This document shows positions 346 to 38,858 of a stretch of 38,858 nt of DNA, piece by piece. The notes below the pieces were generated by a model, which worked only from the letters and a program-made list of their open reading frames with translations, ran no database searches and had not been told where the DNA came from. The DNA comes from a virus. Every line of letters begins with the position of its first letter. Within the stretch, counting starts at the first letter, position 1. The stretch lies in IMG/VR virus record IMGVR_UViG_3300048904_000120. The stretch is one strand, 5' to 3'. Position numbers and translations under genes: made by a program.

Positions 346-389
346 CGACGTTTCCTTCTGGTTTGTTGTTGTGTGTGCTGCTGAGATGG

Positions 390-418
390 ATAATACGGCA
401 CGAGTATTAGAAACGCAA
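390..418 (-). promoter_or_regulatory. Sigma70-like early-left promoter TTGCGT-17-TATTAT with an embedded perfect dyad TAATAC-N7-GTATTA (391-409)
   Basis: The -35 is at 413-418 and the -10 at 390-395 (read on the minus strand). It is nearly identical to promoter 6923-6951, including the spacer TTCTAATACT. Confidence 0.55.
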
Positions 419-457
419 GCGATTTTTCGAGCCGATGTGTGTGATCGGCTACGCTAC

Positions 458-3084: not shown

Positions 3085-3602
3085 TTTTGCTCTCCGTGAT
3101 TAGCGAAATCTCCGTGCAATTTTTCGCGAAGTTCAATAGCTGCGTGTTTTGCGTCTTCGATGTTTTTGAACGTGCCGCCATTCACCATGCGGCCGTCGTG
3201 ACTGACCCGAGCACACCATGCGTTCGAGGCCTTATGCCAAAAGACCCCTTTTATGCCGCTAGTGTTGTCGCGCCGCATCTTCGCGTTTCTCACGTTTTCA
3301 GTGTTGGAGCACACGCGAAGGTTCGCGATTCTGTTGTCAGATCGAACGCCGTTGATGTGGTCGATATGGCCTTCCGGCCACGCCCCATTGGCGAGCAGCC
3401 ATGCGACACGGTGCGCTTGGTAGAGCTTTCGATCTATCTTGACCTTCAGGTATCCCTGAATGCCGATCGATCCGGCAACCTGCCCGGCTTTGATGCAGTT
3501 GGACTTCGCTACCTTCCATCGGAGTTCGCCGGTTTCTGCGTCGTAGCTAAGTTGTTCCGAGACGTACTCGCGTGTTAAGTGCGTGGTCGTTAAATCATTC
3601 AT
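3081..3602 (-). CDS. HNH homing-type endonuclease with an AP2 DNA-binding domain
   Basis: HRVAWLLANGAWPEGHIDHINGVRSDNRIANLRVCSNTEN followed by GVFWHKASNAWCARV. The ATG at 3602 follows SD AAGGAA. Confidence 0.8.
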   Translation of the reverse strand: MNDLTTTHLTREYVSEQLSYDAETGELRWKVAKSNCIKAGQVAGSIGIQGYLKVKIDRKLYQAHRVAWLLANGAWPEGHIDHINGVRSDNRIANLRVCSNTENVRNAKMRRDNTSGIKGVFWHKASNAWCARVSHDGRMVNGGTFKNIEDAKHAAIELREKLHGDFANHGEQK

Positions 3603-3638
3603 CGCGGTTCCTTGTTTGTTTTTGTACAACACTTCTGG

Positions 3639-4352
3639 TTAGAAAAGTGGCGTGCTGTAGTCCATGTCAGCAAGCGATTTTGTTTTACTAGATGATACCC
3701 CAGATGTTTTAGAGTTGGGCGGAAAAATACCCTGATATCCGTTCGCAATCGAGTGATTGATCGCCGCCTTCAGATCGACCCCTTGCGCGCGGTAGGCTGC
3801 GAGCTGCTCGATTGTCTTCAGTGCGCTGCTAGGCGTCATCGGCTTTTTCTTCTCTCTGCGGTGTTGCTCCCATTCGGCCCATAACTCAGGATCGAGCCAT
3901 TCAGGTAAGGAGGGGCGCGCAGCGACCTTTTCAGTCTTTGCTGCCTTTCTCAGTTCTTTCTTAGAATCAGTACTTACTAGTGGTTGATTACCCAAATCTG
4001 GGTTTCCCTGATCTGGATTACCCAAATCTGGGTTTCCTGAATTTGGGTCGGAGGGCGTCGCGCGCTCGCGAACAAGGTAGTCGAGCGTCCCGTCTGCGTG
4101 CTTCTTGCGTCTCAGATAGCCGACATTCAAGAGTTCGTTAATGATCGCGTAGACGGCCGTTTTGCCAGACTGGCGCTGTCCTGCGCCTGCCGTGCAGTTG
4201 ATCAGTGCCTCAATGCTGACGCGCCAATGATCGGGCTTGCCAAGCAGGAAGATGAGCATCCCGCGAGCGGCCCACGACAGGCGCTCATCTTCACTGATCC
4301 GCTTGTCGAGAATGTAGAAGTTGCTGTCCGGGCGCGGCTCTCGGATGATCAT
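3639..4352 (-). CDS. Replication initiator (lambda O / DnaD-like, N-terminal wHTH) with an internal GNPD(L/Q) repeat linker
   Basis: Track ORF 3639-4511 trimmed to the ATG at 4352, which overlaps the upstream stop (ATGA). It is followed by a loader gene and contains the iterons at 3986-4050. Confidence 0.7.
   Translation of the reverse strand: MIIREPRPDSNFYILDKRISEDERLSWAARGMLIFLLGKPDHWRVSIEALINCTAGAGQRQSGKTAVYAIINELLNVGYLRRKKHADGTLDYLVRERATPSDPNSGNPDLGNPDQGNPDLGNQPLVSTDSKKELRKAAKTEKVAARPSLPEWLDPELWAEWEQHRREKKKPMTPSSALKTIEQLAAYRAQGVDLKAAINHSIANGYQGIFPPNSKTSGVSSSKTKSLADMDYSTPLF
3986..4050. repeat. In-gene iteron array (candidate lytic origin)
   Basis: The 22-bp GATTACCCAAATCTGGGTTTCC occurs perfectly repeated at 3986-4007 and 4016-4037. 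Overall there are four 15-bp units (3991-4050), with an AT-richer stretch at 3961-3990. Confidence 0.6.
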
Positions 4353-4828
4353 GCTGCGTTCCTCTTGAGGACGGAAAACGACTTCTTGCCCTTGGTGCTG
4401 TTGCAGGATCGGCAAAGCGTCTGCAGGTTTTCGAGCGTCGTCGGGCCGCCGTCGCGCTCGGAAATGATATGGTCGCAGCAGAGATCGACGTGCGAGCTGC
4501 ACATGACGCACCGGTACGCATCACGCTCGAAAACAGACTTCGCAAGGGTTCGGCTGATTTTCGCCTTCTGGTAGACGTCCCCCCGGCTTCTTGAGCGGAT
4601 GGCGCCGGAGGCGTACATCTGTTCCTCGATTCGGCGCATCATTTCACCGCCATTCCCGTCGCCCCACTCGCGCATAAACGGGGCAGCCTCTTCGATGGCC
4701 TTTTTGATTCGCCGATCAAACTTGGCGCTCGCGGCCTTCGCCGCCTTCTCGTGGGCGCGCGCCGCAGCCTTCTGCTCCGGTGTCATCCACCATTCGTAGT
4801 CGATGTCCAAGATGCTGTTCACGCTCAC
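4349..4828 (-). CDS. HNH endonuclease
   Basis: C-terminal CVMCSSHVDLCCDHIISERDGGPTTLENLQTLCRSCNSTKG. The GTG start overlaps the cro-like stop. Confidence 0.85.
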   Translation of the reverse strand: MSVNSILDIDYEWWMTPEQKAAARAHEKAAKAASAKFDRRIKKAIEEAAPFMREWGDGNGGEMMRRIEEQMYASGAIRSRSRGDVYQKAKISRTLAKSVFERDAYRCVMCSSHVDLCCDHIISERDGGPTTLENLQTLCRSCNSTKGKKSFSVLKRNAA

Positions 4829-5070: not shown

Positions 5071-5337
5071 TTGTCGGCTCCTCGCGCCTGTTGATCTAAG
5101 GCTTTCATTGTATTATAAAGCGCCAAAAGTATCCAGTATTTGTAAGCGTAAAGCGCTGTAAGTTAGTGAAAACTCTAGTTTTTTGCTTTGGTCACGCTTG
5201 CATTCAGACGCCCGATGTCGCAATATTCAGTTACACGAGAAAAGCAGGGCGGCGAGGGGAACACGACCGTACCGGTGAAAAGCGCATGAGGTGCGCACGA
5301 CGGGGCCAACCCGCGACTAAAACACAGGAACCGAAAG
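5071..5337. promoter_or_regulatory. Divergent cro / cI control region
   Basis: AT-rich. On the minus strand, TATAAT (5112-5117) and TACAAT (5107-5112) are -10 candidates. Contains a 10/12 dyad TAAGGC-N7-GTATTA at 5097-5115. TAAAGCGC occurs twice, and AGCGCTGTAA (5152-5161) recurs inverted at 5827-5836. Confidence 0.5.
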
Positions 5338-5787
5338 ATGACCGTAGAAACAATCGAGCGCATCCGCCAACGAAACTTCCTTTGGCTGTTTGACCAATTC
5401 AAAGAAGACTTTCGAAAGGATTGGCCGAACGAGCCAGATCGCGGAATGCTCAGACGATTTGCCGACCGTCTCGGCATGGATCAGATCTACGTGTCGCAGA
5501 TCAAGAACGGTGGGAAGAAGGAAGAGGGCGGAAACGGCCGCATCATCGGCCCGCAGCTCGCGCGTCGCATAGAGAGCGCTCTGAACCTCCCGGAAGGCTG
5601 GCTCGATACAAACCATCAGGCGCCGGCAGAAGTCCAGGATGAGGGTCTGGCAGACGTTCTAAACACTGTCCGCGGCCTCTACGAACATTCACCTGAAGCA
5701 ACGCGCGCCGCACTGATAAAGGTGATGGGCGCTATCGTCACAGGAAAGCCGATAGAGACGATCGTAGAGAAAGAGCACGCAAAATAA
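5338..5787 (+). CDS. CI-like repressor (HTH; no obvious S24 autopeptidase domain)
   Basis: 149 aa. HTH-like LRRFADRLGMDQIYVSQIKNG. Divergent from the cro-like gene. Confidence 0.6.
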   Translation: MTVETIERIRQRNFLWLFDQFKEDFRKDWPNEPDRGMLRRFADRLGMDQIYVSQIKNGGKKEEGGNGRIIGPQLARRIESALNLPEGWLDTNHQAPAEVQDEGLADVLNTVRGLYEHSPEATRAALIKVMGAIVTGKPIETIVEKEHAK

Positions 5788-5802
5788 GCTGCTCGCAAAC
5801 GG

Positions 5803-5830
5803 TTGACAGCGGGGCAGACAAAAGTATTAC
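5803..5830 (+). promoter_or_regulatory. Sigma70-like promoter TTGACA-16-TATTAC downstream of the repressor gene
   Basis: The -35 is at 5803-5808 and the -10 at 5825-5830. The -10 overlaps a GTATTA half-site (5824-5829) and TTACAGCGCT (5827-5836). Confidence 0.5.
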
Positions 5831-5994
5831 AGCGCTAACAATTTTCGTCCTACCAAAGTAATTTTGACTTCTAATACAGCGAAAATGCAACAAAGCAATA
5901 CAAGGATTTGTTGCGTACCCTTATGATATGCCTTATCGTTACGTGGACGCTTAGTTGAAAGCGCCTCCCCAAACGATCAGAAAGGCGGGTAATT

Positions 5995-6177
5995 ATGACC
6001 GGTGCGCAAGTTGTCGCTACGAGTGGTACGAATGTTTTGCCGGTGTTCGAGGGCGAGTTATCGCCTGAGGCTTGGAGTGACAACGAATTCATCAATGCGG
6101 CCTGCGCCGCCATCCCCGTTCACATGCGTCAGGAGGCGATTGCCGCACTTCTGTCGATCGTTGGGCGAACGCACTAA
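5995..6177 (+). CDS. Hypothetical 60-aa protein in the immunity island
   Basis: Track ORF with a modest SD (AAAGGCGGG), downstream of promoter 5803-5830. Confidence 0.5.
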   Translation: MTGAQVVATSGTNVLPVFEGELSPEAWSDNEFINAACAAIPVHMRQEAIAALLSIVGRTH

Positions 6178-6194
6178 TACGCGCAAAGTTTTGG

Positions 6195-6224
6195 TTGACA
6201 CAACTTGGACTGTTTTGGTAAGAT
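6195..6224 (+). promoter_or_regulatory. Strong sigma70-like promoter TTGACA-18-TAAGAT with no ORF behind it
   Basis: The -35 is at 6195-6200 and the -10 at 6219-6224. The next ~140 nt carry only hairpins and two intrinsic terminators. Confidence 0.6.
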
Positions 6225-6293
6225 GTGTCTACCGTGACGTCATTGCGACTTGGGTCGTATTCATCACCGGTTCCTTCTGCTGCAAGGCAGTTT

Positions 6294-6323
6294 CCGCTCC
6301 CCGTCTGGGTTGAGCGGCTTTTT
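6294..6323 (+). terminator. Intrinsic terminator 1
   Basis: CCGCTCCCC-GTCT-GGG(TT)GAGCGG followed by CTTTTT. Confidence 0.55.
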
Positions 6324-6332
6324 ACAAAGTAA

Positions 6333-6369
6333 GCCGTCGCTAGAGCAATCAGCGGCGGCTTTTTCGTTT
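6333..6369 (+). terminator. Intrinsic terminator 2
   Basis: GCCGTCGCT-9 nt-AGCGGCGGC (one G.U pair) followed by TTTTTCGTTTT. Confidence 0.65.
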
Positions 6370-6506
6370 TCGCCGGCGCTCCCCACGCCTGACTGCCGGG
6401 AAAGTTCGGCGTATGGATCGGTAGACCGCTAAGGAGGCGGGGCAGCCTGTAAAGCTGTCGCTTCGGCCAGCTAGGATCGTTACCTAGTCGATCCACCAAT
6501 TTCTAT

Positions 6507-6585
6507 TCCGCGAAACCCGAGCAAGGTGCATGGGCTTGACTGTTAATCAATGGCTAGCTGAGTTCGATTCTCAGGCGCGGAGCCA
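6507..6585 (+). tRNA. tRNA-like element (Asn-type anticodon loop CUGUUAA, encoded CCA) with a non-canonical cloverleaf
   Basis: T arm CTGAG-TTCGATT-CTCAG. Acceptor TCCGCG(A)/(G)CGCGGA plus G plus CCA. D arm CCCG-11 nt-TGGG. Deviations: A at position 8, a 7-66 mismatch, a 4-bp anticodon stem with a C-T mismatch, and a 6-nt variable loop. Confidence 0.4.
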
Positions 6586-6610
6586 AACAAAAAGCCCGCA
6601 TCGCGCGGGC
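6585..6610 (-). terminator. Intrinsic terminator for the leftward small-ORF cassette
   Basis: GCCCGC-ATCGC-GCGGGC (6594-6610). On the minus strand it is followed by TTTTTGTTT. Confidence 0.65.
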
Positions 6611-6615
6611 CTTAG

Positions 6616-6735
6616 TCATTCATCATCCGGATCTTCCTCCGGTTCTTCGTCATCCTCGCCATCTGTCTCGTTGTAGTAGGCGTCTGCCTCCTGATCGAGC
6701 CAGAAATCGTGGCTGCACTTAAACCGCGCGTTCAC
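6616..6735 (-). CDS. Possible 39-aa protein with an extremely acidic tail
   Basis: The GTG at 6735 lies 6 nt after SD GGAGG. Sequence VNARFKCSHDFWLDQEADAYYNETDGEDDEEPEEDPDDE. Too short for the ORF track. Confidence 0.35.
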   Translation of the reverse strand: MNARFKCSHDFWLDQEADAYYNETDGEDDEEPEEDPDDE

Positions 6736-6895
6736 TGCGCGCCTCCAGTGCGTTAGAGAGGATCTTCAGCATGGCGCGCGCTTCGCCGATTGCGCATGCG
6801 CTCTCGATGGTGATGTGACCGGACTGCGCCAGCTCGCGCAGCTTGTCGATCGTCTCGGCTGCTTGCTTCAGGACGTAATTTTCATAGTTGCTCAT
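6719..6895 (-). CDS. Hypothetical 58-aa helical protein (below the track cutoff)
   Basis: The ATG at 6895 lies 7 nt after GGAG. Sequence MSNYENYVLKQAAETIDKLRELAQSGHITIESACAIGEARAMLKILSNALEARSERAV. It has its own promoter and terminator. Confidence 0.55.
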   Translation of the reverse strand: MSNYENYVLKQAAETIDKLRELAQSGHITIESACAIGEARAMLKILSNALEARSERAV

Positions 6896-6922
6896 GGTTG
6901 GTCTCCGCGTTTGCGTTCAGAT

Positions 6923-6951
6923 ATAATACGTCGCAAGTATTAGAACATCAA
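6923..6951 (-). promoter_or_regulatory. Sigma70-like promoter TTGATG-17-TATTAT with a perfect dyad TAATAC-N7-GTATTA (6924-6942)
   Basis: The -35 is at 6946-6951 and the -10 at 6923-6928 (minus strand). Paralogous to promoter 390-418. Confidence 0.55.
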
Positions 6952-6956
6952 GTTTT

Positions 6957-6966
6957 GTTTGCAAAC
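6957..6966. promoter_or_regulatory. Perfect 10-bp palindrome GTTTGCAAAC between the divergent promoters
   Basis: Seen directly. It lies between the -35 of the leftward promoter and the -35 of the rightward one. Confidence 0.4.
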
Positions 6967-6985
6967 TGTCGACGCCGTGGATGCT

Positions 6986-7014
6986 TTGCGCGTTCGCTCG
7001 CCCACATTTAATAC
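6986..7014 (+). promoter_or_regulatory. Candidate promoter of the rightward block, TTGCGC-17-TAATAC
   Basis: The -35 is at 6986-6991 and the -10 at 7009-7014. A 10/12 dyad TAATAC-N7-GACTTA at 7009-7027 overlaps the -10. Confidence 0.4.
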
Positions 7015-7038
7015 ATTCGCAGACTTATAGGAGCCGCC

Positions 7039-7284
7039 ATGTCTCTCGTATCGCTTGTCGTTGTCGCGCTTGTGTTGCTGCTGTCTGCGCTTGGCGTGCT
7101 GGCTGTTGCGATGCTCGCAATGGACTTCGCGGAGGACGCCGAAGAAATGGCGCTGTGCCTGGATCAAGAGAGCGCGCACGGGGCGTTACTGGGCAGCGTA
7201 GAGAGCGAGAAGCATCGACTGATTGCTGGAGCGATGAAGGCTGATCGCGAGGCGGCACTAAAACGTATCGGGGGCGATGCTTGA
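7039..7284 (+). CDS. Small membrane protein (N-terminal TM helix)
   Basis: SD GGAG. N-terminus LVSLVVVALVLLLSALGVLAVAMLA. The stop overlaps the next start (TGATG). Confidence 0.6.
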   Translation: MSLVSLVVVALVLLLSALGVLAVAMLAMDFAEDAEEMALCLDQESAHGALLGSVESEKHRLIAGAMKADREAALKRIGGDA

Positions 7285-30190: not shown

Positions 30191-30316
30191 TAGCGTACCT
30201 GTAGCCGAACACTACGCTGCATGTGGATAACTTTGGCGTACCTGTGACCGGACTCTAAATCTCATAGCGTACCTGTGGCCGAACTCTAAACCGGCTTAGC
30301 GTACCTGTGGCCGGAC
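30191..30316. repeat. Four 20-bp iterons, consensus TAGCGTACCTGTRRCCGRAC (candidate parS or plasmid-type origin)
   Basis: Copies at 30191-30210, 30234-30253, 30265-30284 and 30297-30316, all in the same orientation. Start-to-start spacings are 43, 31 and 32 bp. They lie in an AT-richer non-coding stretch. Confidence 0.85.
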
Positions 30317-30326
30317 AAAACCATAC

Positions 30327-30950
30327 TTATATCTCTTCTATATCCTTCGGCGCTGCCGCGATCCGCCTCCGGGTGTCCATCAAACGGCGCACTGCAGGGT
30401 GCGCAGAATCCTCATCAACCTCATCAGGCGGCGTCGCAAGTTCAGTTGTTGGAAGCGCGGCCTTCAGAACGCCTTCGGTGGAATCCCACCTAAAACCGTC
30501 TCCAGGAATGATCTCGCAGTTTGTGAGCGCTTCGGCGTCGACGCGCCCGCGTTCGTTCACCGCCTCGCCGATTGCCTTTAGACGCTCGCCAATCTTCATA
30601 GGGATATAGTCGACCACGATTGTGCACAAAACTCGCGTTCCTAGCCGAATGTCTAGGCGCTCGCGGGCGATGTATAGCGTCCCTGTCTTGCCCTTTCCTT
30701 TCGTGATGACGCGAAGCATCCTGTGTTTTTCAAGGATCTTCACGCACTCGGATACGGTGCTCTTCCCCATCCCTGTCATTTCGGCAAGTCGGCGGATTCC
30801 CGGCTCGGCCTCGCCAGTGTCGAAGTCGGCGTGGCTTTTGATGGCCTGCCAAAGACCAAAGGCGCTCATCCCGATCTGTGCGGCAATCCCCGATTCGAAC
30901 AAGTCGCGCTGCATGGTCTGGAATGTCGTATCAATCTTGGTCTTCATCAC
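30327..30950 (-). CDS. Winged-helix DNA-binding protein (Rep-like or centromere-binding candidate)
   Basis: 207 aa. HTH IRRLAEMTGMGKSTVSECVKILEKHRMLRV. Coupled to the RHH gene, with iterons immediately 3' of it. Confidence 0.55.
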   Translation of the reverse strand: MMKTKIDTTFQTMQRDLFESGIAAQIGMSAFGLWQAIKSHADFDTGEAEPGIRRLAEMTGMGKSTVSECVKILEKHRMLRVITKGKGKTGTLYIARERLDIRLGTRVLCTIVVDYIPMKIGERLKAIGEAVNERGRVDAEALTNCEIIPGDGFRWDSTEGVLKAALPTTELATPPDEVDEDSAHPAVRRLMDTRRRIAAAPKDIEEI

Positions 30951-31195
30951 TTGCCGCCCTGCTTCCGCCGCGCCAGCTCGCGCCGCGCCCCTTCGACAAG
31001 CAGGTCAGACATTGGCGTGTCAGTCAGCTTCATAAACGCGCGCAATTCCTCATACAAGCTCTTTGGCATGTTCACCGCCATTCGCTGCGTTGAGTCGCGC
31101 TCGCGGAATGTCGGCTGTGCTTCGTTCTCTGGCTTTGCTGGTTGCTGGCCAATAAAGGCGTCGACAGCGCTGCGGTTCAGTGGAGGATTAGCCAT
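30947..31195 (-). CDS. Ribbon-helix-helix protein (ParG-like partition adaptor candidate)
   Basis: 82 aa with a disordered N-terminus. The C-terminal RMAVNMPKSLYEELRAFMKLTDTPMSDLLVEGARRELARR is an RHH pattern. It overlaps the parA stop. Confidence 0.6.
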   Translation of the reverse strand: MANPPLNRSAVDAFIGQQPAKPENEAQPTFRERDSTQRMAVNMPKSLYEELRAFMKLTDTPMSDLLVEGARRELARRKQGGK

Positions 31196-31838
31196 TGAGA
31201 ACCCCCGCCATCAGCGTTCCGAACTCGTCGCTCGCCTTCCCGTCTCGGTATTCGGGCGGCAACTCCATAACCGAAAGCCCTAGTTTCGCGCCCTTCCGGT
31301 ATGCCGCGCGGTCGACGATCGTCGGGCCTAGTTCGAAGTCTCCCATTTCCCGGATAACGTCGATCGATTCGTCAAGCTCGGCCCTGATGTAGTGCGGAAC
31401 GGCGTTCACGAAGGCGATAGCGCGCACTGGCGCCGTTACCGTCGCCCTTCTCTGCCTGACTATGTGCGCCGTCTGCGCAAGGCTCCAGGCGTCAAATTGG
31501 CCTATCCGCAACGGAATCAGGATTATGTCAGCCAATGCCATCGCGACGCGTGTTTCCATATCGAGGTTCGGCGGGCAGTCGATGACGATGTGATCGAAGT
31601 TCGGCGCGTCAGCAGTGACGGCGTGCCCGTAATTTTGGTCGACCCGCACGACGCTTAGGTTCTGCGGCACTTCGGCGTCGATGCGCAACTGCCCCCACTG
31701 GTACGCGCTGGACTGGTACGGATTGGCGTCGTATAGGCGCACAGAGCCGCCCTGCATGGCGAGCGTACCGGCGACGTTGGTGGCGGTCATTGTCTTGCCG
31801 ACGCCACCCTTCTGCATCACAATCGCTATGATGGTCAT
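31188..31838 (-). CDS. parA: ParA/ParF-type partition ATPase
   Basis: Deviant Walker A MQKGGVGKT. 216 aa. The ATG at 31838 follows GGGGAAGGAA; the track ORF starts at TTG 31886. Confidence 0.85.
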   Translation of the reverse strand: MTIIAIVMQKGGVGKTMTATNVAGTLAMQGGSVRLYDANPYQSSAYQWGQLRIDAEVPQNLSVVRVDQNYGHAVTADAPNFDHIVIDCPPNLDMETRVAMALADIILIPLRIGQFDAWSLAQTAHIVRQRRATVTAPVRAIAFVNAVPHYIRAELDESIDVIREMGDFELGPTIVDRAAYRKGAKLGLSVMELPPEYRDGKASDEFGTLMAGVLNG

Positions 31839-31906
31839 GTTCCTTCCCCTGTTATTGTGCGCAAATCCTAGTTCATACTTGCGCAAACATCAATGGGGGA
31901 AGTGAC

Positions 31907-34167: not shown

Positions 34168-34251
34168 CTATAACGGGCTTCGATCGTGTGTGAAGAAGGC
34201 GGCCACGTAGACGGACGGGCGTAATAAGGCGAAGTGGTAGTAGTTGTGCAT
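34168..34251 (-). CDS. Possible 27-aa leader peptide (MHNYYHFALLRPSVYVAAFFTHDRSPL)
   Basis: The ATG lies 3 nt after CAGAAGGAACC, about 45 nt downstream of promoter 34300-34328. Confidence 0.35.
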   Translation of the reverse strand: MHNYYHFALLRPSVYVAAFFTHDRSPL

Positions 34252-34286
34252 GCTGGTTCCTTCTGTTGTGTGGTTATTGTTGTTCC

Positions 34287-34328
34287 TGCATTGCGATGAA
34301 TAATACCTTGGGCGTATCTGCAATGCAA
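34287..34328 (-). promoter_or_regulatory. Sigma70-like internal promoter TTGCAT-17-TATTAT with two operator-like dyads
   Basis: The -35 is at 34323-34328 and the -10 at 34300-34305. TAATAC-N7-GTATCT lies at 34301-34319, and TGCATTGC (34287-34294) / GCAATGCA (34320-34327) bracket the core promoter. Confidence 0.55.
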
Positions 34329-34340
34329 GCTTCTTCTGTA

Positions 34341-38709: not shown

Positions 38710-38858
38710 TCAAGCGCGGCCCGCATGGCTGATCTCGTCGATTTCATCGCGCAGGACGCGCGCACGGTTCACAAGGAGGGAGAGCCAGCCATCGGCGGCG
38801 GCTTCAGGAAACATCGATGAAAAGCGACGCCATTCCAGATCGAAATTCATCAGAAGGG
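38710..38858 (-). CDS. 3' portion of the junction-spanning 129-aa gene (same gene as 1-345)
   Basis: The frame continuing from the duplicated segment ends at TGA 38710-38712. Confidence 0.65.
   Translation of the reverse strand, partial: LLMNFDLEWRRFSSMFPEAAADGWLSLLVNRARVLRDEIDEISHAGRA
38755..38858. repeat. Right copy of the 104-bp terminal duplication
   Basis: Identical to bases 1-104. Confidence 0.95.

Follow-up and report, generated by a model that had tools for sequence, protein, structure and literature searches.

A predicted small RNA gene beside a phage repressor gene, with a seed complementary to the Shine-Dalgarno regions of two early operons

To our knowledge, few of the RNAs with which phages regulate their own genes by base pairing are understood (c4, sar, OOP and P4 CI), and nearly all of them come from enterobacterial phages. 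The c4 RNA of P1 and P7 (immI; Rfam family C4) sits at the 5′ end of its own target transcript (c4-icd-ant), from which it is released by processing; blocked translation of the small open reading frame (ORF) icd also shuts off the downstream gene ant by polarity, and differences between the P1 and P7 seeds give heteroimmunity. The P22 sar RNA is a cis-antisense transcript, made from the opposite strand and complementary to its target throughout. c4 is ~77 nucleotides (nt) long and pairs in trans with the ribosome-binding region of the operon’s first ORF, which prevents expression, and sar (immI; 68/69 nt) pairs with ant mRNA and blocks translation initiation (reviewed in PMC12197685). Here we analyzed a candidate small RNA (sRNA) gene that lies next to the repressor gene in IMG/VR virus record IMGVR_UViG_3300048904_000120. 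The whole stretch of 38,858 nt, hereafter the window, has ends that overlap by 104 nt and represents a circular phage genome, 38,754 bp in size. An earlier note on this DNA had proposed a stand-alone sRNA gene whose seed is antisense to the Shine-Dalgarno (SD) sequences of the first cistrons behind two leftward promoters.

That proposal is supported by a conserved gene architecture, a seed that is predicted to be unpaired, and covariation between seed and target at both sites. We are highly confident that a real, structured small RNA gene is present at this locus, and we put at roughly two in three the probability that its product is a trans-acting antisense sRNA that pairs with both SDs, those of gene B1 and of a 27-amino-acid (27-aa) ORF, and represses their translation. 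In silico support covers how the gene is built and conserved, the covariation of its structure, the accessibility of the seed, and the covariation of the seed with both target sites; that the RNA accumulates, and that it represses rather than activates, is what we infer. The RNA is very probably previously undescribed, without an Rfam family and unrelated to c4 or sar. When the whole window was searched against Rfam with cmscan, 0 matches passed the gathering thresholds, and no C4 match appeared in positions 5750–7050 at E ≤ 10. At that E-value, this region and the corresponding locus of relative L021 yielded nothing beyond sub-threshold matches to terminator stems and a single tRNA-Sec-like match.

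Functionally, c4 of P1/P7 is the closest known system. In both cases a small leading ORF is targeted, the seed varies among lineages, and the carrier is a plasmid prophage or, here, an element resembling one. The present RNA differs in having no sequence or structure homology to c4 (no Rfam match), its own promoter 7 nt upstream beside a CI-type repressor gene, and its own terminator. Its two targets, neither identified as an antirepressor, are dispersed on the other strand at distances of ~5.9 and 10.8 kb around the circle, and its seed is a linear linker between hairpins, whereas c4 uses two loops. The likening to c4 in the earlier note was therefore apt for the way the RNA is predicted to work, by pairing at the ribosome-binding site (RBS) of a leading ORF with covarying complementarity, but not for membership of that family, given the missing Rfam match and the separate transcription unit. 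By analogy, a role in secondary immunity is plausible. Like sar, the RNA would be a phage RNA that blocks initiation, and this phage carries P22-type portal and tail genes; it is, however, encoded elsewhere than its targets, shares just 8–14 nt with them, has no Rfam match and is not a cis-antisense RNA, with only spurious ORFs opposite 6231–6323.

We assessed the anatomy of the gene from its promoter to its terminators (Table 1). The promoter, previously singled out as the best sigma-70 match, is the sole 10/12 site in either half of the window, and a TTGAC(A/G)-17/18-TAnnnT promoter was found at the same distance past the 60-aa ORF in every lineage, despite diverged flanks. RNAfold recovered the tandem intrinsic terminators described before as strong hairpins followed by U runs; a simple terminator scan misses both, owing to the internal bulge and the inner stem found in each. 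Terminator 1 has U5-6 in all variants, and terminator 2 is not essential to the RNA, since relatives of the L023 type lack it. The segment from 6231 to 6372 folds with a minimum free energy of −52.2 kcal/mol (z = −3.15; 0/200 shuffles as good), and the predicted length of the RNA in relatives is 75–125 nt. No credible ORF follows the promoter, as had been stated: the predicted RNA contains no AUG and no conserved frame, length differences of the 5′ hairpin among relatives are not multiples of three, such that any reading frame would be broken. The gene is thus predicted to be an independent transcription unit with an intrinsic terminator and U tail, as is characteristic of class I trans-acting sRNAs.

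Table 1 Features of the sRNA locus and its two candidate target modules (window positions; aa, amino acids; TSS, transcription start site).
Feature	Coordinates	Strand	Remarks
CI-type repressor gene	5338..5787	+	on the strand of the sRNA, upstream of it; phrog_12107 transcriptional repressor, E = 1.6e-10; HTH_3 match weak
60-aa ORF, conserved	5995..6177	+	between repressor gene and sRNA gene; called in all lineages
sRNA promoter TTGACA-18-TAAGAT	6195..6224	+	extended -10 (TGG TAAGAT); scores 10/12
Predicted sRNA, ~93 nt	6231..6323	+	TSS inferred ~7 nt past the -10; 3′ end is the U tract of terminator 1
5′ hairpin, closed by ACCG/CGGU	6231..6271	+	always present; 25–75 nt, one or two hairpins across lineages
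Seed GGUUCCUUCUG	6269..6279	+	core UCCUU (6272–6276) predicted unpaired; flanks extend into bases of both neighbouring stems
Hairpin 2 (CUGCU-GCAA-GGCAG), 5 bp	6277..6290	+	RNAfold and covariance alignment
Intrinsic terminator 1	6294..6323	+	3′ end of the sRNA; stem variants CCGCUC/GAGCGG, CCGGCUC/GAGCCGG, GCCUC/GAGGC, GCUC/GAGC
Intrinsic terminator 2 (back-up)	6333..6369	+	11+2-bp hairpin, then U5; in most lineages, absent from L023 type
Small conserved hairpin	6375..6389		past terminator 2
tRNA-Tyr(GTA)	6415..6498		ARAGORN call; Rfam tRNA model does not reach it
tRNA-Asn(GUU)-like element	6506..6582		weak Rfam match; rejected by ARAGORN; extra base between T stem and acceptor stem
Bidirectional terminator	6591..6613		closes the cassette region
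Gene B1, 129 aa	1..345	-	continues over the circular junction into 38710–38754; heads erf/gam/rusA/ninB operon
Target site B CAGAAGGAAAC	350..360	-	SD of B1, 6 nt before ATG; 9 contiguous matches to window seed
Promoter B CTTGCG-N17-TATTAT	390..419	-	palindrome TAATAC-N7-GTATTA; repeat family D7
27-aa ORF (MHNYYHFALLRPSVYVAAFFTHDRSPL)	34168..34251	-	first cistron behind promoter A
Target site A CAGAAGGAACC	34255..34265	-	SD of 27-aa leader ORF, 3 nt before ATG; 11-nt perfect seed match
Promoter A CTTGCA-N17-TATTAT	34300..34329	-	palindrome GATAC-N7-GTAT; repeat family D7

We compared the RNA gene among ~15 distinct sequence variants from related phage contigs, in which the arrangement of promoter, seed and terminator is kept and paired positions show compensatory changes. 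When folded singly, every variant gave the same layout of variable 5′ hairpin(s), an unpaired (U)UCCUU(C), hairpin 2, a 2–3-nt linker, the terminator and a U tract. At least seven unrelated stem sequences occupy the position of hairpin 2 (including CAGUC/GACUG, GUGGUCU/AGAUCAC, CCGCC/GGCGG, GUGGCCC/GGGCUAC and CCGUA/UACGG), with two-sided changes in 5/5 modelled pairs; in terminator 1, 4/9 pairs changed on both sides and 98.7% of cells were paired. A covariance search across related phages, a check proposed in the earlier note, gave exactly one strong match per genome with model R1, which comprises the seed, hairpin 2 and terminator 1 (alignment A6). In this alignment, which was fitted to the model and so favours structure, 98.2% of cells were paired compared to 84.1% in column shuffles (0/500 shuffles reached the observed value) and 24–47% in slid controls, and 9 of the 14 pairs had changed on both sides. 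MAFFT combined with RNAalifold on the seed-to-terminator segment recovered only the terminator (MAFFT misaligned hairpin 2 because its stem lengths differ), and the covariance-model alignment was used instead. The distant 55-kb relatives L133, L134 and L073 retain a B1 leader of this type, and no copy of the sRNA was found within the 8–10 kb searched in them. The 55-kb contigs concerned are IMGVR_UViG_2808606887_000001 and JAAGPE010000004.1.

All variants have a seed that is predicted to be unpaired, with unpaired probabilities of 0.76–0.99 for its core across 15 variants versus ~0.4 for the whole RNA; a conserved single-stranded seed complementary to translation-initiation regions, a further characteristic of class I trans-acting sRNAs, is thereby predicted here. 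The 11-mer GGTTCCTTCTG reported earlier is present exactly at 6269 and 34255 on the + strand, and the shorter copy near 352 has one mismatch over 350–360, with nine contiguous bases at 352–360 (+ strand). Shuffled sequence contained a mean of 0.39 matches to this 11-mer (maximum 2). Both remote copies are indeed antisense to SDs, which lie on the − strand 3–6 nt before an ATG and behind a TTGC-N17-TATTAT promoter. Since the targets share one duplicated module, the two seed matches are not independent. Site B also has 12 contiguous matches to the seed of a Caballeronia relative.

Covariation between seed and target was assessed by comparing each sRNA with the leaders of its own genome. Cognate matches spanned 8–14 nt at site B in 12 lineages (Table 2; 9–10 nt in L121, L131 and L136) and 8–13 nt at site A in nine lineages, where they follow the seed variant. 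At both sites, CUG seeds always occurred with CAG targets and CCG seeds with CGG targets; at site A, the window seed GGUUCC pairs with GGAACC, and the L072 seed GUUUCC pairs with GGAAAC. Cognate pairs had a mean match of 10.2 nt compared with 8.6 nt in non-cognate pairs, and permuting the sRNA-leader assignment gave p = 0.0007–0.005 for run length and p = 0.015–0.02 for energy. The most telling single comparison is that of L023 and L025, which have 97.8% identical repressors and hardly differ in the B1 promoter and 5′ untranslated region; in this pair, the sRNA seed and hairpins and the SD patch of the leader have both been rewritten with complementarity kept. As judged from these sequence comparisons, the exposed seed has very probably co-evolved with the SDs that open two early operons.

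Table 2 Seed variants and cognate B1 leaders at target site B.
Lineage	Seed	B1 leader	Match
Window type	UUCCUUCUG	CAGAAGGAA	9 nt
L072 (Caballeronia)	CGUUUCCUUCUG	CAGAAGGAAACG	12 nt
L021	UUCCUUCCG	CGGAAGGAA	9 nt
L023	UUCCUUCCGU	ACGGAAGGAA	10 nt
L025	UCGGUUCCUUUCCG	CGGAAAGGAACCGA	14 nt, extra U matched by extra A
L077	UUCCUUCCGUG	CACGGAAGGAA	11 nt
L078	GUUUCCUUCCGU	ACGGAAGGAAAC	12 nt

Several observations, in addition to the model-fitted structural alignment, weigh against a specific antisense interaction. Outer nucleotides of the seed are predicted to lie inside the stems of hairpins 1 and 2, and the match at site B is just 8 nt in L076 and L106. Independent compensatory events are few (~3–5, namely U/C with A/G, an insertion, extensions and, at site A, G/U with C/A) and come from related lineages, the gap between cognate and non-cognate pairs is a modest 1.6 nt, and several non-cognate pairs are as complementary as cognate ones. 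The UUCCUU core is the complement of an SD motif used by several genes, such that part of the complementarity is expected of any pyrimidine-rich RNA, and an energy-only duplex scan of the genome (23-nt query) ranked many sites, in GC-rich coding sequence, above both targets.

An alternative view is that the RNA is real and its SD complementarity generic or incidental, with the pyrimidine stretch acting as a general anti-SD or as a protein-binding element (such as a sponge for Hfq or S1), or with the hairpins serving chiefly as tandem terminators of the repressor/60-aa operon and the RNA exerting no specific control over B1 or the 27-aa ORF. Besides the many genomic sites with lower duplex energies and the well-matched non-cognate pairs, such a view draws on the core’s matches to the SDs of parA (31839–31846), of a gene starting near 3599 (3605–3613) and, in the window type, of the repressor itself (5326–5333), and on the position of terminators 1 and 2 where the repressor operon must end. 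We nevertheless consider it unlikely. The caveat in the earlier note that the seed could be a generic anti-SD in a genome with many GGAA-type SDs was correct in that the core matches other SDs, but the lineage-specific flanks follow only the two leader modules (CUG/CAG, CCG/CGG and the matched insertion). The repressor’s own SD was also considered as a conserved target and rejected: its 8–9-nt match is lost in L076, L077 and L078, and the repressor gene is therefore no conserved target. Finally, every lineage conserves a near-consensus promoter past the end of the 60-aa reading frame, which would be needless for terminators alone.

If the RNA is a trans-acting antisense regulator, a near-consensus and apparently unregulated sigma-70 promoter would make a transcript of ~93 nt. 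In this RNA, a variable hairpin at the 5′ end would be followed by an exposed pyrimidine stretch, (C)GGUUCCUUCUG, then by hairpin 2 and lastly by an intrinsic terminator that ends in a U tail. The exposed stretch would base-pair in trans with the SD regions of two paralogous, unstructured, CA-rich leaders, those of B1 and the 27-aa ORF. Pairing would occlude the RBS and lower translation of the first cistron, and the loss of translation would probably also cut expression of the downstream genes by polarity. A possible dependence on Hfq is hinted at, indirectly, by the U tail of the terminator together with AAC repeats in the leaders. The RNA resembles the Hfq-dependent trans-acting sRNAs of enterobacteria, including the prophage-encoded DicF, in its independent gene, short single-stranded seed, terminator U tail and several SD targets, and the A-rich (AAC)n / ACA tracts upstream of the target SDs resemble sites for the distal face of Hfq. 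It differs from them in that the targets identified here are the phage’s own genes and not host genes, and in lacking Rfam homology to them. Such an RNA may provide a second, RNA-based layer that quiets the early operons in the lysogen, or it may set their timing.

The two targets are paralogous promoter/leader modules, each with a CTTGC-N17-TATTAT promoter, an embedded palindrome (T)AATAC-N7-GTATT(A) and a CA-rich leader. The leaders are unstructured (z near 0), as expected of accessible sites, and an anti-SD hairpin inside them was ruled out, as they fold no better than shuffles. Behind promoter A, the 27-aa ORF is followed by a 387-aa gene, two further genes and parA, and the Rep-like gene and iterons lie farther along in the same leftward direction, beyond parA. 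We propose that B1, a protein of conserved type, and the 27-aa ORF may be the controlled entry points of the early operons. Profile searches with B1 against PHROGs and PDB gave no match that would point to its function, nor did a Foldseek search of its AlphaFold model against PDB and BFVD; the model (predicted local distance difference test score, pLDDT, 68) has a helical C-terminal domain and a disordered N-terminus. Both targets had been described as promoter-proximal, which holds in the window but not for site B in some close relatives. In L015 (1060–1340, − strand), and also in L004, L009 and L016–L018, a small extra gene of ~45 codons and hairpins separate the B1 leader from promoter B. 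The insertion leaves the last ~30 nt of the leader, with the sRNA-complementary SD, untouched.

Further features were observed in and around these modules. A third copy of the D7 leftward promoter module is present at 6923–6952 (− strand). The palindrome, which takes the form GATAC-N5-7-GTATC in relatives, looks from its sequence like an operator for some regulator, and it is not found in the cro/repressor intergenic region. About 30 nt into both B1 (307–316) and the 27-aa ORF (34219–34228), on the − strand, the string CTTATTACGC / (G)CTTATTACG encodes Leu-Leu-Arg. It occupies the same position in all lineages and is kept at the nucleotide level in nearly all lineages examined while the neighbouring codons vary, and it contains two UUA codons, which should be rare at ~58% G+C. 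This string is not complementary to the sRNA and may cause a rare-codon pause or serve as a site in the RNA or the DNA. Within the B1 coding region, a conserved hairpin GCAACA-N6-8-UGUUGC (258–277, − strand), in codons for RPQQxPVAR, was predicted in all three of the B1 leaders folded (window, L023 and L078).

The small ORF at site A also bears on a second alternative, in which the sRNA is the antitoxin of a trans-encoded type I pair, the 27-aa peptide is toxic, and the system stabilizes a plasmid prophage. In known type I systems (IstR-1/TisB and OhsC/ShoB), as would be the case here, an sRNA with limited complementarity controls a very short ORF encoded elsewhere. The ORF is conserved: close relatives keep its frame and the motif xxLLRxxxxVAAFFxHxRxxL, and distant relatives keep MH.Y..ALLR; it has a hydrophobic patch (VYVAAFF) and lies directly behind a strong promoter. 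Its SD is covered by 8–13 nt of sRNA complementarity in nine lineages, and ParA, a Rep-like gene and iterons make plasmid-type maintenance functions plausible. Against this, the patch of ~7 residues is too short for a membrane helix, the peptide is not clearly membrane-active, in contrast to the type I toxins above, and it has no match to a toxin family. In L077 the peptide is a different sequence of 20 aa, and the same seed equally targets B1, a soluble helical protein of 129 aa. We regard a toxin-antitoxin function as quite improbable. It is more doubtful still, and very improbable, that the promoter serves the downstream tRNA/structured-RNA cassette with the hairpins as its cis-acting leader or attenuator: tRNA-Tyr and the tRNA-Asn-like element begin 46 nt past terminator 2 without an obvious promoter of their own, and weak Rfam matches to His_leader and the trpB motif fall across the terminators, but these matches (21.8 bits against a gathering threshold of 49, and 19.6 against 59) concern terminator stems only, no leader peptide and no AUG occur in the RNA, and the cassette varies (tRNAs, an unrelated RNA of ~200 nt, or nothing in L001 and L023) while the sRNA part is constant, so that the constant product of the promoter is the small RNA and not a leader of downstream genes.

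The region past the terminators was also compared among relatives. Between the sRNA terminators and the bidirectional terminator lies a variable cassette slot that holds tRNAs, nothing, or a structured RNA of ~200 nt (window 6375–6404; L072 4925–5125, − strand; L021 7140–7370; L078 5420–5650, − strand; also L009, L003 and L013). The slot always opens with a hairpin GGCG-CUCCCCA-CGCC, the stem of which covaries (GGAG/CUCC, GCGG/CCGC), followed by UGACUGCYGGRAAAG. In the ~200-nt RNA, a long-range helix, CUCUCACG...CGUGAGAG, is conserved and the apical parts vary; this RNA had no match in Rfam. The tRNA-Asn-like element of the window shares 78–84% identity with tRNA-Asn-annotated sequences of Acinetobacter myoviruses and of a Synechococcus phage, and the observation of tRNA-like genes also concerns relatives L012 and L028.

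The phage itself is a P22-like temperate phage of Burkholderiaceae and is probably plasmid-borne. Four 24-nt direct repeats (GCGTACCTGTGGCCGAACTCTAAA-like, spacing 31–43 nt) at 30193–30322 adjoin a DnaD/Rep-like gene (30327–30950, − strand) and lie downstream of parA (31188–31886, − strand). No integrase was found among the window ORFs scanned. A plasmid prophage is suggested by the iterons, the Rep-like gene and parA, by this lack of an integrase among the ORFs scanned, and by the separate, phage-sized contig in Caballeronia sp. NCTM1. In addition, three tandem 15-nt units (GATTACCCAAATCTGGGTTTCC-like; repeat family D3) at 3986–4045 lie inside a RepO-like gene (3639–4511) and are probably iterons of an origin located in the initiator gene, an arrangement shared with lambdoid phages. 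No close relative at the sRNA locus was present among GenBank phages, PLSDB plasmids or GTDB genomes; matches were limited to a terminase (Xanthomonas phage PBR31), fragments of methylase genes, and Acinetobacter phage DNA resembling tRNA-Asn, and GTDB gave no match with the repressor or with an sRNA pattern. Many relatives were present in IMG/VR and in protein-indexed assemblies. One of them, L072, is a 39,936-bp contig (JALQDM010000008.1) in the isolate assembly GCA_023631225.1 of Caballeronia sp. NCTM1, and B1 homologues also occur in Burkholderia sp. Ac-20384. These relatives place the host most likely within Burkholderiaceae.

With antisense control in trans as the favored reading, the locus would add an unrelated RNA family, from Burkholderiaceae phages, to the known phage RNAs. 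Its anatomy is unusually clean, with a strong promoter, an exposed seed and a terminator, and two dispersed targets that derive from a duplicated promoter/operator/leader module. The natural seed-target variants amount to a compensatory-mutation experiment, and the regulation is therefore easy to test; the same variants are a possible source of orthogonal RNA-RBS repressor pairs for Burkholderia-type hosts. We also put forward, tentatively and as unlikely, that the sRNA and the two SD patches form a fast-evolving RNA module that sets specificity and determines immunity a second time, without reliance on the CI-type repressor; rapid change is indicated because the seed and both leaders are rewritten, with complementarity kept, between phages with 97.8% identical repressors. 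On this reading, a single RNA that blocks translation of the leader peptide and of B1 would gate the recombination operon as well as the ParA partition operon, such that lysogenic quiescence, maintenance of the plasmid prophage and heteroimmunity among co-circulating relatives would hang on a matching rule of ~10 nt.

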